The notes under the pieces: generated by a model | What the model saw: the letters and a program-made list of their open reading frames with translations, nothing else | Databases searched by the model: none | Told to the model about the DNA's origin: nothing | DNA from: Octopus vulgaris | Taxonomy: Eukaryota | Reading direction: 5' to 3' | Assembly: GCA_951406725.2 (NCBI GenBank) | Contig: OX597827.1 | Location: 30,938,001-31,002,000, forward strand | DNA length: 64,000 nt | Shown: piece by piece, positions 1 to 63,679 of the stretch | Layout of the letters: every line of letters starts with the position of its first letter | Numbering within the stretch: the stretch's first letter is position 1 | Position numbers and translations under genes: made by a program

Positions 1-199
1 TCATATTTTATACCATCGAAATGCATTTGTATTCACATACATAGCTACGCATACGTAAACAAATATACATACGTTGCACACCGTAAACATACATCCAATG
101 AAATACATATAAATATACGTATACATCAATTCACATATACACAAGCATGCATCCATGTGAATGTACATACTCTCACATACCGTCAATAAATATATTGAT

Positions 200-3100
200 C
201 GTCTCACTCAGATCGTATATAGATAGGGTATTTGTTAAGGAACGAGATATGAATAGCGTTAGCTGTCCACAATTTTCTGTTGTGCCTTACACGGATCACA
301 AACTTGTGACGTGTGAGGTACATGTAGATAAATGCCATAGACAGGGTCTCGGGTACTGGAAAATGAACAGGTCTATTTTGACTTGTGAAGCTTTCCGTAC
401 CCGGATTAAGGAATTAGTCCAGAGGGCATTATGTGGCACCATCATTAATAATAGATGGTGGCTCGCCCTCAAAAGAGCCATCCGTTTGGAGTCCATTAGA
501 TTTAGCAAGCAGCTAAGTTTAGATAGGACTAGAATAGAGGGCGATTTAGTTAAGAACTTAGACGAGGCAATGGAATCTGGCTGTACATCCGGAGTGTTGG
601 CAGCGAGAACGGTCTTGTACCATCACCTCAACGCCAAGCATGTGGGATGTAGAGCCAGAGCTAAGTTACGTGCAGGGAAACGAGAAGGTATTAATGTTGC
701 CGGATGGGCCCGTCGTGAGGAGAGTCAGAAGGGCAAAAAGTCTTCTATTAAGTCTTTAACTGACGAGCAGGGTCGCAAGATCTATGGACAGGAGGAGATG
801 CAGAAGGTCTTTCACCAGCATTTCGCCCGGTTGTTTGGGGATGGCGGTTCGCTCGAGCGAGGGGAGGCCTTAAAGGACTTCCTAGCCGGTGGGCCTCGGC
901 TCTCGACACGTGAGGCGGAATGCTGTGAAGGATCGATCTCTCCCGCGGAGGTAAGAGAGGTTATGGCCTGTTGCGCCGGGGAAAGGTCGCCGGGGTTAGA
1001 TGGTCTGCCCTATGAGTTCTATTGTTGTATGCCGGACTTGTTCGGGGATATACTGGCGGGCGTCTATGCAAACTGGCAACAGAATGGGAGGATTCCCAGT
1101 TCTGTGAGCCGGGGAGTTGTGACGCTGGTCCAGAAAGACCCGAGCAAGGGGGATAGTATTAGTAATTATAGGCCCATAACTCTACTTAATGTAGAGTTTA
1201 AGATTTTGGCCAAGGTGTTAGCAAAAAGGTTGACGGCTGTCGTGGAGAAACTTGTGGGGAAGGCACAAACATGTGCAATCCCAGGCAGGTCGGTCCAGGA
1301 TAATCTTCACCTTCTCCGCTACACTATAGACATTAGCCGGCAAAGGAGGGGCATTGGTCCATTTAGACCAAAGTAAAGCGTTCGATAGGGTAGACCATCG
1401 GTACTTGGCGGCGGTCCTCGAGGCGGCTGGGCTGGGCCCTGGTTTTTGCGGGTGGATCTCAGCTATGTACAGCGGCATCAAGTCCACAGTCCAGATAAAC
1501 GGTTACCTAACGGAGCCGTTTTCAATCAAGCGTTCAGTTTGTCAAAGGTGTCCCTTGTCCCCGCTCCTGTATGTTTTGGCTCTTGAGCCATTGCTGCGGA
1601 AGTTGGAGAAGTTGGGAGGCAATCCTAATGAAATCGGATGCGGTAAGCCTGTTTCTGCCTATGCGGATGACGTCACCCTCATCGTGTCCAACGAAGCACA
1701 GCTACCACGTGTAGAAGGTGCTCTCCGAAGATACGAAGCGGTGGCAGGGGCAAAAGTTAACAAAGACAAGTCCACCGGTTTGCGCCTCGGCACCTGGAGG
1801 AACAAGCCGATATCGTCCAGTGTTGTTGGACACTGGACAGATGGTCCTGTTAAATTGCTCGGAGTTTGGTTTGGTTCAGACTCCCAGACGGAGAAGAATT
1901 GGAGCGAGGTAGCGAACAAGGTAGAAGCTATAGTACGGAAGTGGTCCGGAAGGCATCTTTCCTTGAAAGGGAGGGCGGAGGTGGTACAGGTGTTTATAGC
2001 CTCTGTCATCACCTACCGCCTGACCGTCGTGCCTTGCCCCGATTCGTGGTTAAGCAAGTTGGAACGACTCCTTTTCCGCTTTTTGTGGAGGGGAGGAAAG
2101 CCACTTGTGAGACGCTCCGTGTGTTGCCAGGAACCGCTAAAGGGTGGGCTGGGGATGCCTTGGCTAATGATGCGCAGGCATGCGTTGAGGCTGAGACATC
2201 TCTGGTGTCACCTGGAGAGTGATAAGGTGTGGAATCCGCTGGCAGAGGAATTCTTCCCGCGACCGGCCTCTATGGAGAGATTTAAAACCCGGTTTCATTA
2301 AAAGACGTAACCTGACTTTATGGCAGAAGGAGTGCCGACAGGCACTCTGGCTGATCCACGAGGTGGGCAAGGCCGGCAGCGGGAATACCACCTCGGTGTT
2401 CTATAGAGGGCTGGTAGAGGCAAAAAATGACGACGTCCTAGGAGGGGCTCTGGGGTTCGACGAGAATCAACTCTCCAACCTGTTTAAGAAGACTTTCAGG
2501 CCGGGGTATTTGGACAATTACCAAAAATCCTTGACCTGGCAGTGCTATAGGAATGCATTACCTGTTCGCGATAAGTTATCCAGGTACGGAATGTCAGTGC
2601 CACCGACGTGTCCAAGATGTCGGTTGGACGATGAAACCGTTCAACACGCTTTTGTACAATGTCGGGAGCTGTCAAGCTTGATAAGTTACGTTGAACACGT
2701 GTTGTCGCATCTGGGACGAGCACAGCTGTCGGCTGGATCTATGATAAAGATGATACCGCCAACTGGACTCTCAAATGAAGATAAGGCTTGTTTTTACTGT
2801 ACGGTGGCAGTATTGAAAGAGTGTGTGTGGAGAACCAGAATGGAAGGTTTAGTGACAGGGTCCTTTGTCTCTGGTCCCGGTTTGTTAAACTACTTCAGAT
2901 ATCATCTGAAGAGCAAGATGGGGTTGGAGAAGAGGAGCCTGCCACAGAAAGAATATGTGAAACGTTGGAAGGATGTGATGAGAAAGGTGGGTATTAGTAA
3001 CCCAGCTTAATCATCAAAGAAAGGAAAAATTAGTTGCTGGGCCTTATAGGCTGCCGGGTTCAAAATTCGGAACCTGCACTTCTCCCCCTTTTCATTTTAA

Positions 3101-3335: not shown

Positions 3336-3416
3336 CAGCTAGCAGGCCTTTGCTACTCTAGACTGATGATGGGCAAGACCCAGAAACATGCATGTCTCTA
3401 GATGCAGGCCTAGCTG
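3336..3416 (+). ncRNA. Type I (minimal) hammerhead ribozyme, canonical core
   Basis: Stem I tctaga 3357-3362/3397-3402; core CTGATGA 3363-3369; stem II tggg/ccca with loop caaga; GAAA 3383-3386; palindromic stem III ACATGCATGT; GTC cleavage triplet ending at 3396. Stem I extends through aggcct/aggcct and cagctag/ctagctg. Confidence 0.88.
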
Positions 3417-3729
3417 TTGGGAGTGTTTGTCTCCCCTTCGTAAATATATAAGGACACAGGAAATGTGTCACGGCCGACAGGAAGAGTCGATGCTTCCTAG
3501 GGCTAAATAGCGGTGGTGTAATTCTGTTACGGGACTGTCACGTTAAATTGACAGTATACAACCACTCTCTATATATATATTCTTTCAATTTCTGTTTCGC
3601 TTTCAATCTATCTTTCATTTTATCTCTATAAAACTAATATTTAAAAATTCTTTTCATTTGTTTATTTTCCTGTAATTTAAGCTAACGACTGAATTAGAAA
3701 TATAATCGTAATTAGTTTAGAATTATATA

Positions 3730-10763: not shown

Positions 10764-12408
10764 TACAGATTGAGCAGGGCCATCTACCTGAAGGGATTTG
10801 TAGTTTTCCTGCCTTCCTACATATTAGGACTTTGGTTTTAGCTAGGTTGATTCTAAGGCCCTTCGATTCTAATCCTTGTTTCCACACTCCAGGCAATAAC
10901 GGAGGAATTCAAGACAGGATGCCCCTGGGAGCTCCTCTATGCTGATGATCTTGCTCTAATTGCTGAGTCACTATCAGAACTAGAGGCGAAGTTTCAAGTG
11001 TGGAAACAAGGATTAGAATCGAAGGGCCTTAGAATCAACCTAGCTAAAACCAAAGTCCTAATATGTAGGAAGGCAGGAAAACTACAAATCCCTTCAGGTA
11101 GATGGCCCTGCTCAATCTGTAGTAGAGGCGTAGGTAGAAACTCTATAAGATGTACCCAGTGTAAGCTATGGACACATAAGAGGTACAGTAATATCAAAGG
11201 GAGGCTATCTGGGAAGATAGTTTTTGTATGTGGCAGATGCTCAGGTGCTATAAACACTGAAAATGCTCTGAGACCAATTTCCGCCACATTCCAGGGAGAA
11301 AAACTAGAAGTAGTTGATAGCTTCTGTTACCTAGGTGACCAAGTCAGTAGCGGAGGTGGGTGTGCTAAAAGTGTAGCTGTTAGAATAAGAATAGCTTGAG
11401 CAAAGTTCAGAGAGCTCTTACCTTTGCTGGTGGCAAAGGGCTTCTCGCTCAGAGTAAAAGGTAGACTGTATGACACTTGTGTACGAACAGCCATGCTACA
11501 TGGCAGTGAAACATGGGCTGTAACTGCTGAGGACATGCATAAGTTCACAAGGAATGAAGCCAGTATGATCCGATGGATGTGTAATGTCAGTGTGCATACT
11601 CGACAGAGTGTAAGTACCTTGAGAGAAAAGTTGGACCTAAGAAGCATCAGATGTGGTGTGCAAGAGAGACAACTGTGCTGGTATGGTCATGTGGCAAGAA
11701 TGGACAAGGACAGCTGTGTGAAAAAGTGCCACACCCTAGCGGTTGAGGGAACCTGTGTAAGAGGTAGACCCAGGAAGACCTCGGATGAAGTGATGTAGCA
11801 TGACCTTCGAACTTTAGACCTCACCAAGGAAATGGCTAGTGACCGAGACCTTTGGAAATATGCCGTGCGTGAGAAGTCCTGGCAAGCCAAATGAAACCAT
11901 AATCTCATGGCCTATGCCAGAGGCGTAACCAGCCCACTTATGTGTAACCTTTTCCTTCTTTGGACACTAAAACTTTACTTGCAAAGACCTGTGGAGGCAA
12001 GTGAAATCAAATCAATCGAAATCAAATTCGATGACTGGCGTCCATGCTAGCAGGGTGCAAAGAGCACCATACGAGTGAGATCGTTGACAGAGCGGCTAAC
12101 CGGCTTCCGTGCTAGTGGCACTTAAAGGGCACCATTCGAGCGTGATTGTTACCAGCGTTGCCTTACTGGCACTTGTGCCCGTGCTAGTAGGGTGCCAAAA
12201 GCACCATCCGAACGTGATCATTGCCAGAGCAGCCAACTGGCTTCCGTGCCAGTGGCACATAAAAGGGTACCATTCGAGTGTGATCTGTAGAAAACCATGC
12301 CAAGTCAGACTGAGGCCTGGTGCAGCCTTCATGCTAGCCCATGCAAACCGCCCAACCCATGCCAGCATGGACAACGGACATTAAATGATGATGATGATGA
12401 TGATGATA
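10764..12408 (+). mobile_element. 5'-truncated RTE-clade LINE copy with an inverted 125-bp duplication at its 5' end
   Basis: Plus-strand LLYADDL, PHD-like Cys cluster, [14 protein letters not shown], with stop codons. (GAT)n tail at about 12385-12408. 10764-10888 is the reverse complement of 10997-11121. Confidence 0.9.
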
Positions 12409-25149: not shown

Positions 25150-26280
25150 CTATAAGCCTGGCTGTAAAGTACCATATACCTGAGAAGGCTGAGAGAGAGC
25201 ATATCTCTGGGGGTGTGGTGTACTGTATTCCTGAGCCTGTGTTTTGGAGTAAGCAGTAGATTGTGGTGTGCTGTACAGCTGAGGTTGTGTCATGTTATTC
25301 AACTGCGACATTGGCGAGGTGTTGTACAGCAAAGGAGAGCTGTACAGCTGTGTTGGTGGCGTGTTGTACAGTGGTGACTGTAGCATGTTATACCGCTGTG
25401 AACACTGCATCTTGTAGACATCTGACTGTGACAAACTGCACATTTGTGTCTCCGGTGTACCAAAGACGTCAGGCTGCTGTCTGTTATACACCTGCAACGG
25501 TGGTGTGCTGCACTTTGCTGACTGAGGTGTATTGTACAGCTCTGATGGCAATGTGCTGCTCAATAAAGATTGTGATGATTTGTACATTTTTGACAGCGGT
25601 GAAGTACATTCAGCAGTTGGTGGAACACTGTATTTTGGTGACAAAGGTGAAGAACTTTTCGGTGACTGTGGACTGGTGTACTTCTTGGATAGAGATCCAC
25701 TGCTTTCTGGCAATTGTGCTGCTTTGCTTATTTGCGGTTCTTGTTTGTCATATTGTGCAAGTGGTAGGCTGTTCATCTGTGAAGGTGGAGTACTGTACAT
25801 TTTGGCAAGTGGCGAGCCATACATTTGCGACTGAGGAGTAGCATACATCTGTGCCTGAGGAGAGGCATACATTTTAGACAATGGACTACCATACATTTGC
25901 GCTTGTGCTGCACTATGCATCTGAGTCTGTGGTGTACCATACATTGATGATTGTGGTGAGCTGTACATTTGAGACGGCTGAGAGATGTACACCGATGACT
26001 GGTGTGGAGAATTGTACATGTCTAGCTGTGGTACATTGTACATCTGTGAAGGGGGTGTGCCATACATCTGCGACATGTTGTAGCGTTGTGCTGCCTGAGC
26101 CCTACTGTACATAGGTGACAAAGCACTTTTATTCATTTCAGACAGCTGTGTGTTATATTTTTGCAACACAGGTGTACAGTACATGTCTGGCTGTTTAGAA
26201 TTCAATGATTGTGGTTGTGGGCTGCTATACATTTTTGATGGTGGCGTGCTATACATCTGCAGTAATGATGTATTGCTCAT
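25150..26280 (-). CDS. Uncharacterised 376-aa low-complexity protein of about 45 degenerate octapeptide repeats M-Y-x-(S/T)-P-x-x-Q (S/Q/P/Y/M-rich, predicted disordered)
   Basis: 1131-bp uninterrupted ORF in a TE-poor island, with an in-frame TGA two codons upstream of the ATG. The 8-aa phase is largely kept although the nucleotide repeats are highly diverged. No signal peptide or TE motif is visible. Confidence 0.8.
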   Translation of the reverse strand: MSNTSLLQMYSTPPSKMYSSPQPQSLNSKQPDMYCTPVLQKYNTQLSEMNKSALSPMYSRAQAAQRYNMSQMYGTPPSQMYNVPQLDMYNSPHQSSVYISQPSQMYSSPQSSMYGTPQTQMHSAAQAQMYGSPLSKMYASPQAQMYATPQSQMYGSPLAKMYSTPPSQMNSLPLAQYDKQEPQISKAAQLPESSGSLSKKYTSPQSPKSSSPLSPKYSVPPTAECTSPLSKMYKSSQSLLSSTLPSELYNTPQSAKCSTPPLQVYNRQQPDVFGTPETQMCSLSQSDVYKMQCSQRYNMLQSPLYNTPPTQLYSSPLLYNTSPMSQLNNMTQPQLYSTPQSTAYSKTQAQEYSTPHPQRYALSQPSQVYGTLQPGL

Positions 26281-28109
26281 TTGTCAGAGATGTCTTAAAA
26301 AGTTTGTCAAAGTAGTAGCGCCTTTACAACAAAAAAAAGAGTTTGTATTTTAAATAGTATATTTACCAAAACACTTGATTTGGGCAGGCCAATAAGATAT
26401 CCAACTCTGTTAAAATATTTCAATTTCTTGCCAACACTACTTTGGGTGTCAATTACATAATTTGACCCTATTCCAGATACTGAATTTAACAGCAGGATCT
26501 ATTTTTCTTTTCTTTTTTTTTTTTCACAGAATATATTTCCTTTTTCAAATATTTCGTGTTGAATTTTCACAAAAATCGTTCCAGTTAGTTTTTTTGTTTT
26601 TCCTTTTTGATTTAGAAAGAAAATCTTTCTGATATAATTGTGAAATGATTTTTTTTCCTTTGTGTCAATTTCGTCAAGAAATATAATAAAAATTATAAAG
26701 TATATATGTACAACAAATGTATAAATTCCTTTAAAATAATTTCAATTCGCCAGCAAAATTAATTAGTGTAAATTGCATCAGAATGAACCAGATGTGATCT
26801 ATAAGCAAGATTTTTTTTCTTATTTAAAAAATTTTATAGACTCAACGTATATTATTTTAACAGATTCGATTGTTTCCCTCCATTTAAATCATTTATATAA
26901 GTTATGTTTAAGTAGTAGGAACTTAAACGAAAATAATAATGATGATGTTTCTTTATAATAAAATAATATTAATAGCAGAAGGGAAGATAAAACAACTCAG
27001 TGCTCATTAGAATTTCAATGGTAGATATATTTTTCTCTTTAAAAATGCTAACTGAAGATGAATGAAGCTAAAAATAAAGAAATGGGCTAAAAGTTAAGTG
27101 AAACCTCCAGCAGAAGATATAATATTTCACATACAAGTTCCGTTGAAGACAGATGCAACCCTACAATATCAACTGAATCTACTTTTTTCTTCTCCTCCTG
27201 CTTCACTTTCAAGAAATACAAAATGATTTTTTTTTCTTTTTTTAGAATTTTACTTGTTATATAAACATTAAAAAAAATAATGAAAAAGAAAAGAAAAGCC
27301 CAACTTTTTTCTGTTAAAGCAACGCAAACAGCTAAACTATATATTTAAAAAAAAATGTAATAACTTTCATTGTTCTGTTAGTTTCTGAAATGGTAATAAG
27401 TTGATATATATATATATATAATGTATGTGTGTATAATATATATATATATTTATCTATCTATGTTCTTTCTCTCTTTTAGCATCAAAAGAAAATATCGAAA
27501 ATTATAGAAAGCACAGATTATCAAGAGATAATTATCATAATCCTTAAAAATCTCACGATTAACAAGAACAAATTAATAATAAATAAATATTAGCACTTTT
27601 GATTCAAAATTTAGCCGAAATCTTGATGGGAAAACTAGCTTTATTTCTTCAACAAAGCGCATCCAATATTTCTAAGAATGGAGTTCTCATCATTGTTCGC
27701 AATTACATCTTACCTATTCCCTCACTCTATTGCGGTTTTGTAATTCTATCCAATATCAAAAATGTCTTATTCCTTAATTATTTATTTTTTTTCGTTTAGC
27801 TTAAAATAATTTTTCAATTCAAACGAATATTCAAAAAGAGATAGAGACAATGTGTTTTTTTTTAAGTATAAATTCTACAATGGGTAACGATGGTGGATAC
27901 CTAAGTTAATTTGTTAAGAATAAATAGTAAATAAGAATATTATATATATAAAAAAAAACAACTTAATTTAAGAATAATTCAATATTTCCTGTGCATTGTT
28001 GTCTGTCAGAAATAAATGTCATAGAGTCCTCCTCTCCTTTACTGCTCGTCTTGGGGCTTGCGAGCATTTAGGTTAATGAGAGAAAATGTGTTAAAAGTTG
28101 TTCGGAATG

Positions 28110-47988: not shown

Positions 47989-50900
47989 CATCATCATCAT
48001 CATCATCATCGTTTAACGTCCGCTTTCCGCGCTAGCACGGGTTGGACGGTTTGACCGGGTCTGGGAAGCCAGGGGCCGCTCCAGGCTCCAGTCTGAATCT
48101 GGCAGAGTTTCTACGGCTGGATGCCCTTCCTAACGCCAACCACTCCGTGAGTGGATTGGGTGCTTTTTACGTGCCACCTGCACAGGGGCCGGAGGGTCCG
48201 GCATCGTCACGATCGGATTCGAGCATTTTAACGTGTCAGCGGCACGGAGGCAACGAGGTCCGGGGTACTTTGGGGATTGGGGTATTTTGGGGATCCAGGG
48301 TACTTTGGGGATCCGGGGTACTTTGGGGATCCGGGGTACTTAGAATGGGTAGGGGGGTACTTAGAATGGGTAGGGGGTACTTAGAATGGGTAGGGGGTAT
48401 GTGGAATTGCTGCAGAAAGCAGCCCGGGTCTTTGTAGTCACAGCATATCTCCAGAGATCTCGGTCCTTCGCCATTGCCTCAGTGAGGCCCAATGCTCTGA
48501 GGTCATGCTTGACCACCTCATCCCATGTCTTCCTGGGTCTACCTCTCCCCCTGATACCTTCAACTGTTTGGGAGTGGCACTTCTTCACACATCTCTCTTC
48601 ATCCATCCGCAGCACATGACCATACCATCGCAAGCGTCGCTCTTGCACACCACATCTGATGCTTCTTATATCCAGCATTTCTCTCAGGATACTTACACTC
48701 TGTTTTGCGTGCACACTGACACTACACATCCAGCGGATCATGCTAGCTTCATTTCTTTCAAGTCTACGCATGTCTTCTGCAGTCACAGCCCATGTTTCAT
48801 TACCGTGAAGCATGGCAGTTCGCACACATGCATCATATAATCTACCTTTTGCTCTGAGGGAGAGGCCTTTTGTTGCCAGTAGGGGTAGGAGCTTTCTGAA
48901 CTTTGCCCAGGCTATTCGTATTCTAGTGGTGATACTCTCTGTGCATCCACCTCCGATACTAACTTGGTCTCCCAGGTAGCGGAAACTATCAACTACTTCT
49001 AGTTTCTCTCCCTGGAGTGTGATGGAATCTGTTTTCTGAGTGTCTGTTGTGTCTATTGTCCCTGTGCATCTGCCGCACATGAAAGCTATCTTATCTGTTA
49101 ATTTCCCTTTAATGTTGCTGCACCTCTTATGTGTCCATAACTTACATTGGGTGCATCTTATGGAGTTTCTACCTGTACCTTTCCTACAGGTTGAGCAGGG
49201 CCACCTACCCGAGGGGATGTGTGTTGAGTACCTCTTGCTGCTTACTAATACTTTGGTCTTTGCTACATTTATTCTAAGGCCCTTTGATTCCAACCCTTGC
49301 TTCCATACCCGAAATTTCTCTTCTAGTTCCGGTAGTGATTCTGCTATGAGAGCTAGGTCATCGGCATAGAGGAGCTCCCAGGGGCATCCCGTTTTGAATT
49401 CCTCTGTTATTGCTTGAAGTACTATGATGAACAAAAGGGGACTGAGGGCTGAGCCCTGGTGCACACCTACTTCTACTCGGAATTCTTCACTATATTCGTT
49501 GCCAATCCTAACCTTGCTAACAGCCTCTCTGTATAGAGCCTGTACAGCCCTTATTAGCCATTCTTCAATCTCCAGTTTCCGCATCGACCACCAGATAAGG
49601 GAATGGGGAACCCTGTCAAAGGCTTTCTCCAAGTCTACAAAAGCTATGTAGAGGGGTTTATCTTTAGCTAGGTACTTCTCCTGCAGTTGTCGGACCAGGA
49701 ATATAGCATCAGTGGTGCTTCTACCTGGTACAAAGCCGAACTGCATTTCATCTAAACAAATTCTCTCCCTAATGAGATTGGTTATGACCTTCTCTGAGAC
49801 CTTCATCACCTGGTCCAACAGTTTGATACCTCTGTAGTTATTTCTATCTAGAGCATCACCCTTACCCTTGTAGCAGTTGACTATGGTACTGCTGCACCAG
49901 TCATTGGGTATGGCTCCATTGTGAACTACCTGGTTTACAATGCGGGTGACTATGGCATGGCCCACATAGCCAGCTGTTTTAAGCATCTCAGCAGTGATTC
50001 CTGATAGGCCAGGGGCTTTGCCTGGTTTCATATCCTTAATTGCCTTATCTACAAGGGAGCTGTCTATTCGGGTAGCTGGTCCCTCTACTGGGTCAACATT
50101 TGGCAGGCTCTCCTCCTCCCATTCATTCTCCTCATTTAGCAGTCTTTCATAATGGCTTCTCCAAGCCTCTTTCTTTTCACTAGTAGTAAAAGCAAAGTAA
50201 AAGCAAGTGCCCCATCATCCATGCGGACACATTTCTCTCCTATAACATCGCTATTTTCTCTGACACACTGTCTGGCAATCCGAAATACTTCAGCTCTTTG
50301 ATCCTCGCGACGCTGGACATTGGCAAACTTCTTCTTTTCTGCTACATCTTTGGCAATGTATACCTGCCGCCCAGCCTCCTTTTGGCTATCTGGTACAGTT
50401 CCCTGCTGCCCCCCTCCTTCCAGGCTTTCCAGGCCCGTCTCTTTTCACAGATGGCTTTATCTACTGCACTATTCCACCACCACGTAATTCTAGGTCTGGA
50501 AGGGATTCTTTGCACCATCCACAGACTTGGTCTGTGGCACTCAACAAGCTGTCCCGTAGGAATTCCCAGCTACCTTCTATGTCTGACGTCTGAAGCTCCT
50601 CTTCCCTCTCATCAAATTTCTTGATGAGTATGTCCCTAAATTTCTTGACCATGCGAAGGGTTCTTTAGCCTCCAAATCCTTCTTTTCTGGATTGGTTTGT
50701 TTCTTGGAGTCCTTCTGGCCTCAAGCTTAAAGTCACTGATGATTAGTCTATGCTGAGGGATACATTCTTCACCCGGGAGGGTCTTTGTATTCAAGAGCAA
50801 CCCTGCATCCCGTTGTCTGGTGAGGATGAAGTCTATTTGGCTAGCGGAGTCTCCTGACTGATAAGTTATAAGGTGGCAGACTGGCTTCTTGAAGTTAGTG

Positions 50901-51800
50901 TTGCAGATTGAAAGGTTACATGCATCACAGAATTCCAGTAGTCTAGTTCCCTCATCGTTTCTGGTGCCAATACCATATCCACCATGTACCCCAGTGAAGA
51001 TACCCGATTCCCGCCCAACATGCCCGTTAAAATCTCCACCTACAAAGATGAGGTCCTTGTTACTAGGTCTTTGAAGTAGCCTGCAGAAGGGTATCATAAA
51101 AGTTGTCCTTCTGATCATTTGGTAGTCCCGCTTGTGGGGCATAGGCTGAGATAATCATAGCTGTGCCACTCTGTAGGACCAACCTGAGCTTAAGCACTCT
51201 ATCACAAACCCTGACAACCTCTATGACCTTATCCACCCATTCCTCCGCAAGGAGAATGCCTACACCCCCTACACCTTCCGCGTTACCTTGCCAGTAGAGT
51301 TTGTATCTAAGTGCCTTGCCCGTGAGGACCCTAGCCGAAGCATCTCTCCATCTTACCTCTTGTATGCAGCATACATCAACCTGTCTTCTCTCTAGCATCT
51401 CTACAATCTCACTAGACTTGCCTGTCAATGTACCAACATTGATAGTGCCAACTCTGAAAACTGGGAAGGAGATGTGGGGGGGACAGGGGGGATTCGGCGC
51501 CTGAGAAGAGGAGGGTTGTAGTGGTGGTGATAGTTTTCGTGGTATTTTTCTTTTGATCTCTCTTCCAACCTGACCACGTCGTGGGCAGGAGCTGGTGTTA
51601 GCAGTGGACATTTGTTATCGTCTCTGAGTAACGTAATTAGGTAGAGGAAAGAAATACAGATATTCTAGAGTTGAGTTGGGGAGGTCCAGTTGAGGCGGGT
51701 AATATAGAGGGAGCAACCAGTGGGGAAGGTTGGGGTAAGGAGGGAACGATGGCAGGAAGGGTTGGTGTAGGTTCCTAAGAAATAAAAACGTAGGAAATAG
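47989..51800 (-). mobile_element. Near full-length RTE-clade LINE (APE + RT + PHD-like finger), frameshifted
   Basis: ORFs 51063-51611 (RVGTINVGTLTG, CIQEVRW, SAYAPQ), 50636-51142 (GGDFNGHVG, QIDFIL, QHRL) and 48361-50031 ([47 protein letters not shown]). (GAT)n tail at 47989-48010. Confidence 0.93.
48260..48400. repeat. G-rich minisatellite in the RTE 3' region
   Basis: About four copies of ggggtactttggggatcc followed by three copies of ggggtacttagaatgggtag. Confidence 0.85.
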
Positions 51801-54586: not shown

Positions 54587-55182
54587 TATTTCTTTATTCT
54601 CCACAAGGGCTAAACACAGAGGCGACAAATAAGGACAGACAAATGGATTAAGTCGATTACATCGACTCCAGTGCGTAACTGGTACTTATTTAATCAGCAT
54701 CAAAAGGATGAAAGGCAAAGTCGACCTCAGCAGAATTTGAACTCAGAACGTAACAGCAGACGAAATACCTATTTCTTTACTACCCACAAGGCGGCTAAAC
54801 ATAGAGGTGACAAACAAGGACAGACAAAGGGATTAAGTCAATTACATCGACCCCAGTGAGTAACTGGTACTTAATTTATCGACCCTGAAAGGTTGGAAGG
54901 CAAAGTCGACCTCAGCAGAATTTGAACTCAGAATGTAACAGCAGACGAAATACTATTTCTTTACTGCCCACAAGGGGCTACACACAGTGGGGAAAAACAA
55001 GGACAAACGGATTAAGTCGATTATATTGACCCCAGTGCGTAACTGGTACTTATTTAATCGACCCGAAAGGATGAAAGGCAAAGTCAACCTCGACGGAATT
55101 TGAACTCAGAACGTAGCGGCAGACGAAATACCGCTAAGCATTTTCACTTGGCGTGCTAACGTTTCTGCCACCTCACCACCTT
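54587..55182 (-). mobile_element. Family B SINE with its body triplicated in tandem (about 185-bp units)
   Basis: Three units tatttcttta..cccacaag..catcgaccccagtg..gaatttgaactcagaa..gacgaaatac, with a single 5' head at 55130-55182. Confidence 0.85.
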
Positions 55183-55198
55183 CTCGTTAATTTCTGTT

Positions 55199-55787
55199 TG
55201 AACATTTAACGTGGTTTTATAGTCAGAATTTCGACTGCTATTTCGGCATGTTGGTGTCTTTTAGACACCCTCATTTTGCTAATGTATTGTCTTTTAGACA
55301 CCCTCAAATTGTTAAAAATTTTTTTACCTTTGTAGGTATTTCTTTCATGCTGGCCACTTGATAATTTTGACACTTAAATATCGATATTATCCTCATATAT
55401 AAATTTATATAATTTGTTATTATATTCACTGCGGAGCTTATTTTAACCATATCGTAATTATGCGGTGATTTGGCGGGCAATTCAAACTGGATGTGTCCAT
55501 ACGTGCATATATGTATGTACGTCGCTCGTATATGTAAGTATATCGATTTGCTTTGTGCATATATATATCTGTATTTATGTACCCTTGATATATTCAATTG
55601 ATGACGGTAAAGCTTATTTAAAGCAGAACCAGAAATCCTTGGATCTTGAATTATTCAATAATTTTTGCTTGTATGTTTTGTCCCTCCGCTTTACCTCATG
55701 GTGCGATATGAACATTTAACGTGGTTTTATAGTCAGAATTTCGACTGCTATTTCGGCATGTTGGTGTCTTTTAGACACCCTCATTTT
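55199..55787 (+). mobile_element. Retrozyme/Penelope-pLTR-like non-coding element: 510-bp unit with 79-bp direct terminal repeats and a hammerhead motif
   Basis: Identical repeats at 55199-55277 and 55709-55787; HHR fold at 55592-55651; no credible ORF. Confidence 0.65.
55592..55651 (+). ncRNA. Type I hammerhead ribozyme motif with U3 core variant
   Basis: Stem I attcaa/ttgaat; core TTGATGA 55598-55604; stem II (c)ggt..gctt/aagc..acc(a); GAAA 55632-55635; stem III atcc-tt-ggat; cleavage C at 55645. Confidence 0.68.
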
Positions 55788-55798
55788 TAATTATATAT

Positions 55799-55898
55799 NN
55801 NNNNNNNNNNNNNNNNNNNNNNNNNNNNNNNNNNNNNNNNNNNNNNNNNNNNNNNNNNNNNNNNNNNNNNNNNNNNNNNNNNNNNNNNNNNNNNNNNN
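55799..55898. other. Assembly gap (100 N)
   Basis: Run of N. Confidence 1.
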
Positions 55899-57647
55899 TT
55901 ATTAAATAAAACAGTGTCTCAAATGAACTTCAAGTTCATAACAGATTAAACTTTTAAAAAGCGTTTAGAATCTGGAGTTACTTCCCCTTGTAGTTTATCT
56001 AACTTTCGTAGATGAATTTTTTTCTTCTTTTCCTTTCATTTCATATTTGTTAAAATTTCAATTAAAACTGTAACATTCTGTATATCAAAATCACATCTAA
56101 ATAGACATGGAATCGAAAGATAAATATATTTGTAAAAATATTAGAAAAATATCCTTAAATTAATCTTTTAGTTCTTTTAAAAATTAAATTTTGATTTGAG
56201 TAAGATTTTCAATTTTTAATTCTTTCTTTCTTTTTCAACTTCTATAAAATTTTTATTTCTGAAGACATTTCTGATTTCACTGTTTGAAATTATGACAAAA
56301 TGAATAAAAATGCACAAAATAATGAAATCAAAAGCCAAATCTTGAGTTCTCCTTTCTGGGTTTATTTACTTATAATGACATTTATTTCCTCAACAAATAG
56401 GAGCAGGCGTGGCTGTGTGGTAAGAAGCTTGCTTCCCAACCACATTGTTCCATAGTACCGCATGACACATTGGGCAAATGTCTTCTACTACAGCCTTAGG
56501 CCAACCAAAGCCTTGTGGGTGGATTTGGTAGACGGAAACAGAAAGAAGACAATCATTATGTATATATATCATCATCATCATCATCATCATCGTCGTCGTC
56601 GTCGTTTAACGCCCGCTTTCCATGCTGGCATGGGTTGGACAGTTTGACTGACGACTGGCGAGCCAGAAGGCTGCACCCGGCTCCAATCTGATCTGGCAAA
56701 GTTTCTGTATGCATGTGTATGTGTGTGTCTTTGTATCTGTATTTGTCCCCCTCCACCATCGCTTGACAACTGATGTTGATGTGTTTCTGTCCATGTAACC
56801 TAGCGGTTTGATAAAAGAGTGATAGAACAAGTCCTGGGGTTGATTTCTTTGACTAAAAATCCCTTTAAGTTGGTGCTCCAGCATGGCTGAAACAAGTGAA
56901 AGAATAAAACAATAAACGGAGAGAATTGCTTGCAGAAGGACACAGTGTGTGTGTACCAGTTATTGATGGATGGAAAGAGAGTCCCCTAACCCCCAAAAGC
57001 ATGTTGTGAGTGATGGTAGCTGCTGTTGTTGTTGTTGCTGCTGGTGAATGTAAATATATTTCTTGGGTCACGTGAAGAAGTAACTAACAACACTTGCAAA
57101 CAATTATTAAAGCTCATAGAGTTTTAACTGTGTTGGTCTTCTACAAATAATAATTTCTACTCTAGGCACAAGGCCTTGAAAATTTTTTGAGGGGAAAAGG
57201 ACTAGTCAATTACATCAACCCCAGTACTTCACTGGTATTTAATTCATCGACCCCGAAAGGATAAAAGGTAAACTTGACTTCAACGGAATTTGAACTCAGA
57301 ATAAAGTGACAGGCAAAATACTACTTAGCATTTCATCCAGCATGCCAACGATTCAGCCTGCTTGCCATCTTGGTCCTCTATTAATAATAACAATAACAGC
57401 AATAGTTCCATACCAGGAGAGATGGAAAAACTGCTACACCAAAAAAAGTAACTTATGAGATGAGACATTATGTCAGTGTTTTGATCAGTCTGTCCAGGAG
57501 TGGCTGTGTGATAAGTAGCTTACTTACCAACCACATGGTTCCAGGTTCAGTCCCACTGCATGGCACCTTGGGCAAGTGTCTTCTACTATAGCCTTGGGCC
57601 AACCAAAACCTTGTGAGTGGATTTGGTAGATGGAAATTGAAAGAAGC

Positions 57648-57691
<44 letters not shown>

Positions 57692-60147
57692 ATATATATT
57701 TGTGTATCTGTATTTGTCCCCCCAACATCGCTTGACAACCAATGCTGGTGTGTTTATGTCCTCATCACTCAGCGGTTCGGCAAGAGAGACTGATAGAATA
57801 AGTACTAGGCTTACAAAGAATAAGTCCTGGGGTCGATTTGCTAGACTAAAGGCAGTGCTCCAGCATGGCCACAGTCAAATGACTGAAACAAATAAAAGAA
57901 TAAGAACCTGGAGATGTCTGTGCAAATGTCCCTGGCAAGAGTGGAGGGGTATTTTACTCAGCCACTTTCAGTACTCTGCAATCATGAGAGGCGAGATGTG
58001 TGAACGAGCTGACTGGTCTCAATGATCTGCAAGGAGTTAAGGTAGCAGAAGTGGCACTTCTATAGGGCACAGAGAGAAAATTCTAGAAAATTGAATCACA
58101 CAGTGGCTCAATGCTGACTGGCTGTTTTGCAGACCTATTGTATGAAACTGCTGTGGCTTGGTCATGATGTCTGACTGGGTATCCAGAGATTTGGTTCCAA
58201 ATCACTGCTACAAGATCTAATTAAGGCCCCAGTTTCATGTAGTGCAGTGGTTTTAAATCTGGATGGCAATGCTCTATGGAGGCTCACAATGGAGAGGCAA
58301 CTGGCAAGGGAGGAACTACGGAGGATGCTGGATGTTTAAATGGGTAAAGATTTTGAAAATAAAATATAACCCTTTCAATATAAACCCACCTGAAACCATC
58401 GTTGGTCCTATGAGACAAACCTCCTGTTTTAAAGTGTTGTTGTTTGTTTCTTCGCGAGCCTTGCCTGGCTTATAAGGACCAGTTTCCAACTTTCATTGGT
58501 GTGTAGCTTCCCCACCTGGATGGGACGCCAGTCCATCACAGGAGGAAAGAGTGAGAGAAAGTTGTGGCAAAGTGTCAGCAGAAGTTCACCATTACCTTCT
58601 GCTGGAGCTGTGTGGAGCTTAGGTGTTTTACTCATAAACACACACATCACCCGGTCAGAGATTTGAACCCATGATCCCTCGGCTGAAAGTCCGCTGCTCT
58701 AACCACTAGCCCACGTGCCTCCACTGTTTTAAAATGATTTACATTAAAACCTTCCATCAAATTTTCAAGTTAATTTATGTTCCAAATGCCAACTTAATAA
58801 TGATAATGTTATTTTATTATTTATTATATTCAAAATTTATTAAAACATAGCAGTGTATTTTAATAGAAATATGATAACAAAAGGGTTAAAATAATCTTTT
58901 CTACTCTAGGCACAAAGCCTGAAATTTTTGGGACGGGGCCAGTCAATTAGATTGACCCCAGTACTTGACTGGTACTTAATTTATCGACCCCAAATGGAGA
59001 AAGGCTAAGTCGACCTTGGCAGAATTTGAACTCAAAGCATAAAGATAGACAAAATACCGCTAAGCATTTCACCACTCATTATGCTAATGTTTCTGCCAGC
59101 TTGCTGCCTTAGCGTTAAAGTGATGTGAATTAAAACTTCCATTATTTCATGTAAATTTAAGGCAGTGAGCTGGTAGAACTGTTAGCATGCTGGGAAAAAT
59201 ACTTTGTGACATTTCGTCCATCTTTATGTTCTGAGTTCAAATTCTGCTGAGGCCGACTTTGCCCTTCCTCCTTTCAGGGTCAATAAAATAAGTACCAGTT
59301 GAATGCTGGGGTTGATGTAATCAACTCAATCTCATCCCCCCAAAATTGCTGGCCTTGTGCTAAAATCTGAAACTATTATTTTATGTTAATTTATATTCCA
59401 GCTCAATAATGGCAAAATTTTTTTACCCAATTTCTTCATTATTTTGAAAATAAATTGAAACAAAAGTAATAGAATGATAGTAATGAAAGGATTAACAGGA
59501 AGAATACTTATATTTGAAATACATCTTCAAAAAAAAGTTTATACCAAGAATGAAAATCAGTCCTTCATTTGGTTCTTGAAAATCCAACATTGAGAACTGG
59601 TCGAAAAGCAGTAATATTCTTTTGTAGTTTCTGTAAAAAATTGAGGTAGAGAGCATTAGTTTATACAAACATTTAAAAGAAGGAGCTACATGTTTCACTG
59701 AAAATAATTTGCTGTGTTTTTTTGTGTTTTTTGTAAACCAAACTGATGATTAGAAAAGAGTAACTCTGTGTATAGGAAATTTGAAGCTATTCAGTTATAA
59801 TGTATTTTATATATATATATATATATATTTCTTTACTGCCCACAAGGGGCTAAACACAGAGGAGACAAACAAGGACAGACAAAGGGATTAAGTCAATTAC
59901 ATCGACCCCAGTGCATAACTGGTACTTAATTTATCGACCCCGGAAGGATGAAAGGCAAAGTCGACCTCGGCGGAATTTGAACTCGGAACGTAACGGCAGA
60001 CGAAATACGGTAACGTATTTCACCTGGCATGCTAACGTTTCTGCCAGCTCGCCGCCTTTTATTTATATGTATATATATATATATATATATTCGTCCACCA
60101 GAGAGAGCAGCCAGAACTCAAACCGCCAAGCAGTAGTAATTCAGAAA

Positions 60148-60157
60148 TATATATATG

Positions 60158-60188
<31 letters not shown>

Positions 60189-60189
60189 G

Positions 60190-60238
<49 letters not shown>

Positions 60239-60363
60239 ATATGTATGTATATATATATGTATGTATATATATATGTATATATATATATGTATATATATGT
60301 ATGCATATGTATGCATATGTATATATATGTATATATATGTATGTATATATATATATATGTATG

Positions 60364-60396
<33 letters not shown>

Positions 60397-60493
60397 GTGT
60401 GTATATATATATATATATATGTATATGTATATATGTATATGTATATATATGTATATATGTATATGTATATATATATGTATATGTATATATATG

Positions 60494-60526
<33 letters not shown>

Positions 60527-60571
60527 ATACATATATACATATATATACATATACATATATATATATGTATG

Positions 60572-60606
<35 letters not shown>

Positions 60607-60609
60607 ATG

Positions 60610-60684
<75 letters not shown>

Positions 60685-60687
60685 ATG

Positions 60688-60758
<71 letters not shown>

Positions 60759-60792
60759 GTATATATATATATATGTATATATATATATGTAT

Positions 60793-60837
<45 letters not shown>

Positions 60838-61045
60838 TATATATATATGTATATATATATGTATGTATATATATATATGTATATATATATGTATGTATAT
60901 ATATATGTATGTATATATATATGTATATATATATATATGTATGTATATATATATGTATGTATATATATATGTATGTATATATATATGTATGTATATATAT
61001 ATATATATGTGTATATATATATATGTATGTATATATATATATATG

Positions 61046-61116
<71 letters not shown>

Positions 61117-61139
61117 ATATATGTGTATATATATATATG

Positions 61140-61199
<60 letters not shown>

Positions 61200-61230
61200 G
61201 TATGTATATATATATATATATGTGTATATA

Positions 61231-61305
<75 letters not shown>

Positions 61306-61312: not shown

Positions 61313-61531
61313 GTACTTGTTTCAGTCATTTGACTGCGGCCATGCTGGAGCACCGCCTTTAGAGTGGTGAAAGAGTACAGCAGGGATCACCATCCCCTGC
61401 CGGAGCCTCGTGGAGCTTTTAGGTGTTTTCGCTCAATAAACACACACAACGCCCGGTCTGGGAATCGAAACCGAGATCCTACGACCGCAAGTCCGCTGCC
61501 CTAACCACTGGGCCATTGCGCCTCCTATATA

Positions 61532-61690
<159 letters not shown>

Positions 61691-61700
61691 GTATATATAT

Positions 61701-63679
61701 ATAACTACAGAGGTATCAGAGGTATCAAATAACTACAGAGGTATCAAGCTGTTGGACCAGGTGATGAAGGTTACAGAGAGGGTCATAGCCCAACTAATTA
61801 GAGAGAGAGTTAGTTTAGATGAGATGCAGTTTGGGTTTGTGCCAGGGAAAAGTACTACTGATGCTATATTCCTGGTAAGGCAGCTGCAGGAGAAATACCT
61901 AGCCAAAGATAAGCCCCTGTACCTGGCTTTTGTTGACATGGAGAAAGCCTTCGACAGGGTCCCCCGATCCCTTATCTGGTGGGCAATGAGAAAACTAGGG
62001 ATAGATGAATGGTTAGTGAGAGCTGTGCGGGCCATGTATAGGGACGCCGCTAGTAGGGTGAGGGTTGGAAATGAGTACAGTGAAGAATTCCGGGTAGAGG
62101 TAGGGGTCCACCAAGGCTCAGTACTCAGCCCCCTCCTATTTATCATAGTCCTCCAGGCAATAACGGAGGAATTCAAGACAGGATGCCCTTGGGAGCTCCT
62201 CTATGCTGATGACCTTGCTCTAATTGCTGAGTCGCTATCAGAACTGGAGGAGAAGTTTCAGGTGTGGAAACAAGGATTAGAATCGAAGGGCCTTAGAGTC
62301 AATCTAGCTAAAACCAAAGTCGTAATCAGTAGGAAGGTTGACAAATCACAAACACCTTCAGGTAGATGGCCCTGCTCGATCTGTAGAAAAGGTGTAGGTA
62401 GAAACTCTATAAGATGCACCAAGTGTAAGCTATGGACACATAAGAGATGCAGCAATGTCAAAGGAAGGCTAACTAGGAAGATGGTTTTTGTATGTGGCAG
62501 ATGCTCAGGAACAATAAACACTGAAAATGCTCTGAGACCAACTTCTGTCACTTTCCAGGGAGAAAAACTAGAAATAGTTGATAGTTTCCGTTACCTAGGT
62601 GACCAAGTCAGCAGCGGGGGCGGGTGTGCTGAAAGTGTAACTGCTAGAGTAAGAATAGCTTGGGCAAAGTTCAGAGAGCTCTTACCTCTGCTGGTGACAA
62701 AAGGCCTCTCGCACAGAGTGAAAGGCAGACTGTATGATGCGTGTGTACGAACAGCCATGCTACATGGCAGTGAAACATGGGCCGTGACTGCTGAGGATAT
62801 GCGTAAGCTCGCTAGAAATGAAGCCAGTATGCTCCGATGGATGTGTAATGTCAGTACTCACACTCGGCAGAGTGTAAGTACCTTGAGAGAAAAGCTGGAC
62901 CTAAGAAGCATCAGTTGTGGTGTGCAAGAGACGTTTGCGCTGGTATGGTCATGTGGCGAGAATGGATGAAGATAGTTGTGTGAAAAAGTGCCACGCCCTA
63001 GCGGTTGAGGGAACCTGTGGAAGAGGCAGACCCAGGAAAACCTGGGACGAGGTGGTGAAGCACGACCTTCGAACTTTAGGTCTCACTGAGGAAATGACTA
63101 GAGACCGAGACCTCTGGAAGTGTGCTGTGCGCGAGAAGACCCGGCAGGACAAGTGAGTCCACAACCCGTGGCCTTCTACATGGGATGGAGCCAGCCTACG
63201 TATGCATACCTTCCCTTCTTGGGACACAAAACTCTACTTGTGAAGACGTGTTGAGGCAAGTGAGGATCAGAATCGAAATCGATCAATGGAAATTGCGGAT
63301 GTGCTACCAGTGCCGGTGGCATGTCGAAACTCTGCTTGTGAAGACCCATTGAGGCAAGTGAGGATCAGAATCGAAATCGATCAATGGAAATCGATCAATG
63401 GAAATTGCAGATGTGTTACCAGTGCCGGTGGCATGTAAGAGAACTTTCCGTTTCGCGACCGTTGCCAGCACCGCCCCGTTTCGTGTCCGTTGCCAGCCTC
63501 GCCTGGCCCTCGTGCCGGTGGCACATAAAAAGCACCATCCGTTCGTGGCCGTTTGCCAGCTCTGTCTAGTGGTTGGCGTTAGGAAGGGCATCCAGCCGTA
63601 GAAACACTGCCAGATTTGACTGGGCCTGATGAAGCCTTCTGGCTTCACAGACCCCAGCAGAACCGTCCAACCCATGCTA

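Follow-up and report, generated by a model that had tools for sequence, protein, structure and literature searches.

A multi-copy hammerhead repeat in Octopus vulgaris that is probably a non-coding passenger of Penelope-like elements

Introduction

Animal non-LTR retrozymes are non-coding units repeated head to tail, each with a type I hammerhead ribozyme that has a 6-bp helix I and a short helix III. They are low in G+C, are predicted to fold into self-paired RNAs, and occur as many monomeric or partial copies. Unit lengths of 150–450 bp (Cervera and de la Pena 2020, PMC7229834) and, in a 2026 survey, of 51–972 bp (Li, Clavereau and Pollet; 10.64898/2026.07.22.740005) have been reported. RNA circles have been demonstrated for coral, mussel and axolotl retrozymes (PMC7229834), and the 2026 preprint relates animal retrozymes to Penelope pseudo-LTRs, by trees in vertebrates (10.64898/2026.07.22.740005).

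Copies of Penelope-like elements are typically truncated at the 5' end, form partial tandems and insert into (TA)n or microsatellites; partial tandems and (TA)n targets are also described for non-autonomous Chlamys elements such as MRC1 (PMC8557442). One Penelope protein has been found to nick AT-rich DNA and to initiate reverse transcription at an internal RNA site that lies downstream of the hammerhead; hammerhead cleavage was dispensable for insertion of the anole element in vitro (PMC11167929). In the accessible text of these sources, the mobilisation of retrozymes by Penelope-like elements, together with the question of circles versus multimers, has so far been argued from co-occurrence and trees.

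For cephalopods, 235 hammerhead-1 matches have been reported in a squid genome (PMC6962438), and an octopus repeat annotation describes 31 recently active Penelope-like families, with the word 'ribozyme' not appearing in its accessible main text (PMC13282606). Our literature search found no paper on a cephalopod retrozyme among the records listed; the family described here, or its core, may already appear in supplements or repeat libraries. We analysed a 64,000-nt window of Octopus vulgaris DNA that contains a short hammerhead-bearing tandem near its right end. We consider it probable that this locus is a copy of a multi-copy, non-coding hammerhead repeat of about 480 nt, most likely a retrozyme carried as a non-autonomous passenger by a Penelope-like retrotransposon.

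Locus architecture

The locus comprises 1.15 contiguous units that lack an open reading frame and have a G+C content of 0.33 (Table 1). As claimed in a first-pass annotation of the same DNA, the unit is bounded by identical direct repeats 510 nt apart, with 100% identity over 79 nt. The exact identity ends at both edges and extends neither way, and this arm pair is the longest among seven exact, non-low-complexity repeats of at least 40 nt within the window, which holds no further copies of the unit. The locus contains one hammerhead, and its right side abuts an assembly gap; no target-site duplication was visible. The locus copy ends at 55787 or at 55792, because the next five letters fit the family sequence and an AT-rich target alike. 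The possible extension of the right arm is based on a loose end before 55307 in one sequencing run (X1). The A/T-only letters that follow the right arm are likely the start of a (TA)n target.

Table 1. Features of the hammerhead repeat locus (window coordinates)
Feature	Position	Strand	Remarks
Full unit	55199..55708	+	510 nt at the locus; ~480 nt in the family (majority model 479 nt)
Left arm of exact repeat	55199..55277	+	55199 is the locus copy's own 5' stop point
7-bp hairpin, the motif that was duplicated	55253..55269	+	recurs at 55763–55779
Insert private to the locus copy	55278..55306	+	29 letters, net 28; holds second small-hairpin copy
Perfect 16-nt A/T palindrome	55396..55411	+	family copies preferentially terminate (3') at its last base
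Strand blocking hammerhead helix I	55488..55497	+	predicted pairing with 55587–55596
Type I hammerhead	55585..55658	+	core 55598–55604, GAAA 55632–55635, predicted cut 55645/55646
Right arm, start of second unit	55709..55787	+	may reach 55792 in the family register
A/T-only 11 nt ending in AT repeats	55788..55798	+	precedes the gap
Assembly gap	55799..55898	.	100 N, starts 11 nt past the right arm

The insert that follows the left arm is absent after the right arm. A small internal duplication had been pointed out earlier, and it is indeed present, in three copies (at 55255, 55288 and 55765); it is private to this copy, however, and not a feature of the family. The near-zero depth of its bin (55278–55295) in the contigs of the four runs compared below (0, 0, 0 and 0.3), together with a contig of run X10 (record 8) that crosses the insert site with 29 gap letters, indicates that the duplication is private. 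A majority model of the family that includes the remaining majority indels is correspondingly shorter than the 510-nt monomer first proposed. The 10-nt filler of the insert resembles by eye the stretch directly past the ribozyme (55274–55287 compared with 55663–55676), a likeness that could reflect a template switch during copying.

Family copies in public runs

Part of the stretch was carried by 20 out of 24 listed public runs, from six coded organisms and one metagenome, each with at most 0.44 of its words. We compared contigs from four of these 20 runs, X1 and X10 (guessed to be RNA) and X2 and X3 (guessed to be DNA), from organisms A and B, by aligning them to 55170–55708 at 80% likeness; run X20 (share 0.14) and four runs at 0.00 were left out of the contig comparison. 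The statements on individual pieces and loose ends below cover 32 of 1111 pieces and 24 of 194 loose ends. Family contigs numbered 531 in X2, 536 in X3, 14 in X1 and 11 in X10, contig depth not being a copy number, and identity to the unit ranged from more than 99% to less than 90% in X2 and X3. These contig numbers and this range of identity point to a diverged multi-copy family.

The head-to-tail joint from 55708 to 55199 was found in X1 (79 letters on the short side), X10 (37 letters) and X3 (2 contigs, depth 699.7, 23 letters); it was absent among the joints listed for X2. One X1 record matches 55364–55708 and then continues into the 79-nt arm without any difference. Contigs with loose ends before 55199, 55215 and 55217 carry the 55708 side there and, together with the joint, show family sequence continuing upstream of 55199 into that side. 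Every point of the unit was bridged by some contig; in the four runs, no single contig spanned the whole unit and none carried two hammerheads in tandem. With 1.15 units at the locus and the joint recurring in independent runs, the proposed partial tandem of just over one unit, of the retrozyme or Penelope type, is well borne out.

The first-pass annotation also raised the concern that the adjacent gap had caused the duplication or that the repeat was an assembly artefact. The 79-nt repeat could in principle have arisen at a contig end or as a one-off local duplication: its arms are 100% identical, the second stops 11 nt before the 100-N gap, and the runs compared include no read set of the sequenced individual, the best match among all runs carrying 0.44 of the stretch's words. 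The recurrence of the joint in three of the four independent runs, from two organisms, makes such an origin very improbable, as do the record with 0 differences over 79 letters and a right arm that lacks the private insert following the left arm. The joint is no proof of an RNA circle, because it occurs in the DNA-type run X3 and lies away from the ribozyme site.

Preferred end and insertion pattern

Copies that are freely permuted around a circle had been anticipated. Instead, the family has a preferred shared end at 55411, behind which contigs leave the unit into (TA)n in 2 out of 14 cases in X1, 23 out of 531 in X2, 27 out of 536 in X3 and 1 out of 11 in X10. Among the loose ends listed, at least 53 contigs in the four runs stop at 55411 with a TA-repeat consensus; in X1, a single contig departs from the unit at 55401 instead. 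Across 55411, depth fell from 133,813 to 41,723 and then 21,503 in X3, from 180 to 79 and 35 in X1, and from 101 to 40 and 12 in X10; X2 showed no drop (49,438, 50,598 and 60,504), and the table of dominant contig starts and ends was empty. The end coincides with the last base of the A/T palindrome, which we predict to be the start site of reverse transcription. The right end of the locus copy itself lies about 100 nt short of 55411 and is not the preferred end.

Two X1 contigs (records 4 and 5) contain matches of 56–66 nt with unrelated sequence on both sides and would look like 5'-truncated insertions, and contigs that run through 55411 (records 1 and 6 in X1, 17–19 in X2, 24–27 in X3 and 12 in X10) would resemble tandems. 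No strand-change joint of the kind that an inverted 5' copy would give was present among the joints listed. Taken together, the family displays an internal 3' end, 5' truncation, a (TA)n target and a partial tandem, which is the insertion pattern of Penelope-like elements.

A further X1 contig (record 3), 533 nt long, has no more than the final 105 nt in common with the unit (55307–55411) and carries 417 nt of other sequence upstream; a diverged version of the small hairpin directly precedes the match. This contig is a candidate for a sister family or for the end of an autonomous partner.

Hammerhead geometry and core

The ribozyme has the type I layout, with three helices around the core and the ends in helix I, and it occupies the last quarter of the drawn unit and not, as first described, its middle. 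Helix I consists of 6 bp (55592–55597 with 55646–55651), a 3x3 internal loop and 4 distal bp. Helix III has 3 bp and a 4-nt loop, with C17 at 55645; it is near-palindromic, with a self-duplex of -8.9 kcal/mol. Helix II starts with a C55605-A55631 mismatch and continues with two paired segments, of 3 and then 4 bp, separated by a 3x3 loop, so that base pair 10.1-11.1, which should close this helix, is missing; in an alternative drawing, the mismatch becomes a G-C pair with a single extra letter on either side. In the canonical core, C3 pairs with G8. Compared with the strict consensus (C3 U4 G5 A6 N G8 A9, G12 A13 A14, A15-U16 and H17; PMC7151607), the octopus core departs at position 3 alone, with U at 55598 and all other letters present.

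The U3 hammerhead with C-A at the base of helix II can thus be drawn as the first-pass annotation proposed. A relaxed type I descriptor, written after the motif had been seen and allowing U3 and one helix II mismatch, matched in 2 out of 5000 shuffles of the 589 nt; the real window gave 2 matches, and one match occurred in 2 out of 60 window shuffles. Rfam reported nothing at gathering score within the window, and at E<=10 the eight matches included no hammerhead family, consisting of AT-repeat hairpin microRNA models and chance matches.

Both departures had been taken as signs that this particular copy might be impaired. They are, however, the majority letters of the family and not decay. U is the majority at 55598, the canonical C making up 19% (X2) and 12% (X3) of depth; at 55605 and 55631, no alternative letter reached 10% in the four runs, and the remaining core positions likewise showed no change at 10% or more in run contigs. 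The only common change inside the ribozyme lies in the helix II internal loop, at 55626 (43% and 31%). We expect such a ribozyme to be slow, and it would need a dimer or a protein.

Natural hammerheads vary at the same sites, through a position 3 change and through a mismatch at 10.1-11.1. The described position 3 variant is a compensated U3-A8 (PMC3088659; PMC4209133), in contrast to the octopus family, in which U3 is uncompensated and G8 stays. Natural variants also include a helix II that begins with a U-U mismatch (PMC3088659), as in the axolotl Amex2 retrozyme family, which shows weak monomer cleavage (PMC7229834). The octopus family combines both departures, and does so in the majority of a high-copy family; within the accessible text of the literature searched, no assay of an uncompensated U3 combined with a helix II C-A mismatch was found.

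RNA folding and a competing helix

The circular fold of the unit reached a z-score of -4.6 for the hammerhead strand, compared with -2.3 for the opposite strand, and that of the majority model -4.8; across unit folds, the scores ranged from -4.6 to -4.9, and 0 out of 40 shuffles were as low. We treat this strong self-pairing as moderate evidence, because 6 out of 40 control folds from the window had lower z-scores than the unit. Variable positions were paired in 12 out of 31 cases, compared with 64% of all positions (p 0.003; fold taken from the locus copy). At these 12 positions the pair was kept in six cases, compensated in one and broken in five; 55418 and 55445 change together, keeping their predicted pair.

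The hammerhead is not the preferred fold, either in the locus copy or in the majority model. The free fold of 81 nt differs from it (z -0.58), and the hammerhead as drawn has -8.4 kcal/mol against a minimum of -10.6. An upstream strand (Table 1) is predicted to pair with one strand of helix I, with a pair probability of 0.86–0.99 in the locus copy and at most 0.11 in the majority model. Forming the hammerhead costs 9.0 kcal/mol in the locus copy and 4.9 kcal/mol with the majority letter at 55491. The locus copy is therefore predicted to be more impaired than the family, owing to the competing helix on the helix I strand and not to U3.

These features bear on whether the repeat spreads as DNA, as a satellite-like sequence or a rolling-circle, Helitron-like passenger, with the hammerhead as an older relic. 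Such a history would suit a non-canonical core in the family majority, a hammerhead that is not the preferred fold and a palindrome at the fixed end, and 8 out of 9 predicted frog retrozyme dimers were not cleaved in vitro, as given in the accessible text of the 2026 preprint (10.64898/2026.07.22.740005). It nevertheless seems to us quite improbable: a single fixed 3' end on the hammerhead-sense strand and short stubs ending there fit target-primed reverse transcription, the hammerhead strand has the stronger fold of the two, with one co-varying pair, and the other core letters show no change at 10% or more.

Coding content

The claim that the element lacks an open reading frame holds. The longest ATG frame in the unit encodes 48 aa, and 0 out of 6 stop-to-stop frames reached a Pfam cut-off. 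A 42-aa frame after the ribozyme had 0 relatives among 1.84 billion proteins, and a 116-aa antisense frame matched no Pfam family, its best Atlas score being 0.78. The telomerase-like reverse transcriptase and GIY-YIG ORF of an autonomous Penelope-like element was absent from the unit, and 0 out of 29 tested window ORFs contained a GIY-YIG domain. The element has no tRNA head, and a promoter scan, which used a bacterial model, was at chance level. In metagenomes, nine loci with a hammerhead pattern were set aside as chance matches: they have 50–69% G+C, none of the nine aligns to the unit, and none has helix I. Viral contigs gave 0 matches to a 24-nt motif.

An autonomous Penelope-like element might have left the copies as by-products, in the form of pseudo-LTR pieces and deletion derivatives whose coding part is missing or lies in the gap, with no unit spreading independently; we consider this unlikely. 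Hammerheads do sit in Penelope pseudo-LTRs, mostly as single motifs from truncated elements (PMC4209133), X1 record 3 joins the end of the unit to other upstream sequence, and the loose ends listed are 24 of 194. Yet the 1.15 units lie contiguously in the window and contain no ORF, contigs bridge all points of the unit, three of the four runs contain the joint, and the frame after the ribozyme is without protein relatives. A non-autonomous passenger remains the reading that we prefer.

Relation to retrozymes and Penelope-like elements

The family resembles an animal non-LTR retrozyme in how it works and a Penelope element in how it inserts. As in the former, a head-to-tail unit of a few hundred bases carries one type I hammerhead with a 6-bp helix I and a short helix III, has no coding capacity, is low in G+C (33% here, under the 50% limit), is predicted to fold on itself and has left many monomeric or partial copies. 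Its length of about 480 nt falls inside the 2026 survey range and is slightly above the 2020 range. By contrast with animal retrozymes, the majority core has U3 opposite G8, a C-A at the base of helix II and a long two-part helix II, and the family has a preferred (TA)n end; a 2020 review states that repeats of this type carry no motif indicative of their partner (PMC7761336). We do not file the family as a plain retrozyme, because its core departs from the strict consensus at two places and its circles are hypothetical.

As in Penelope-like elements, the 3' end is fixed and lies downstream of the hammerhead while the 5' end varies, the target is AT-rich, a partial tandem mimics terminal repeats, helix III is near-palindromic and an extra nucleotide follows A9, the last being typical of Penelope hammerheads (PMC4209133). 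Unlike these elements, the octopus unit has no reverse transcriptase or GIY-YIG ORF; no partner element was found in the window, and no 30–40-nt tail or inverted copy was seen among the family contigs listed. Reverse transcription would start about 250 nt past the ribozyme site, compared with about 85–92 nt in the anole element (111–118 minus 26; PMC11167929).

We propose that head-to-tail copies would be transcribed and that the endonuclease of a Penelope-like partner would nick TA-rich DNA. The reverse transcriptase of the partner would then initiate at an internal position of the RNA, in most cases at the A/T palindrome that lies about 250 nt past the ribozyme site, and would copy backwards over a variable distance. 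Short runs would leave stubs of 60–105 nt, and long runs would pass both the ribozyme site and the start point, giving partial tandems; the present locus would be a 1.15-unit product whose start lay about 100 nt short of the preferred one.

From a ribozyme-cut monomer, at most about 250 nt could be copied from the main site. The locus copy crosses the predicted cut and exceeds one unit, so its template would have been either a re-ligated circle or an uncleaved multimer. The circles of coral, mussel and axolotl retrozymes speak for the former, and the dispensable cleavage of the anole element and the uncleaved frog dimers for the latter. We see these two as nearly equally probable and lean slightly towards the multimer, because the majority ribozyme has a weakened core. 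It is possible, if doubtful, that the Penelope reverse transcriptase directly copies an abundant circular RNA of about 480 nt, starting at the fixed A/T palindrome within it, and that the family has spread with a doubly altered hammerhead that the competing helix keeps slow or off, leaving the circle closed. If true, a Penelope start site would have been mapped for a retrozyme for the first time, and the family would offer a natural C3/U3 allele pair for testing whether tandem formation needs cleavage and circles.

The kind of element is already described, and the family is a useful case, not a new class. To the retrozyme–Penelope question it adds an insertion-end signature, namely one preferred end and a (TA)n target. 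With both C3 and U3 alleles present, copy number and age by allele would bear on the role of ribozyme efficiency in spread.

Neighbouring features

The window consists of animal DNA rich in repeats, among them several LINE remnants; a homologue search with one neighbouring LINE ORF gave exclusively animal-type elements. A frameshifted LINE at 102–3010 (+), with a reverse transcriptase and a C-terminal zf-RVT and presumably L1/Tx1-like by its domain order, ends just before a second, unrelated type I hammerhead at 3340–3580 (+). This second hammerhead, which is predicted to be cut at 3396/3397, has a canonical C3-G8, a perfectly palindromic helix III and a G-C helix II with a U-A pair at its base, and a short (TA)n lies about 170 nt past its site; it is likely a truncated Penelope-type element of another family.

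A LINE with a PHD-finger-like insert in the reverse transcriptase region is present in three copies (10857–11399, 48361–51614 (-) and 61440–62969) and had 2359 relatives at E<=1e-50 among 7999 candidates scored. At 25150–26283 (-), a stop-free frame of 377 codons has no Pfam match. Three head-to-tail copies of a 185-bp SINE-like unit (54587–55132) lie directly left of the retrozyme copy, and more copies are found at 57161, 58928 and 59864. Farther right, positions 60146–61290 form a TA/TG microsatellite of more than 1.1 kb, the type of target that the retrozyme family uses.
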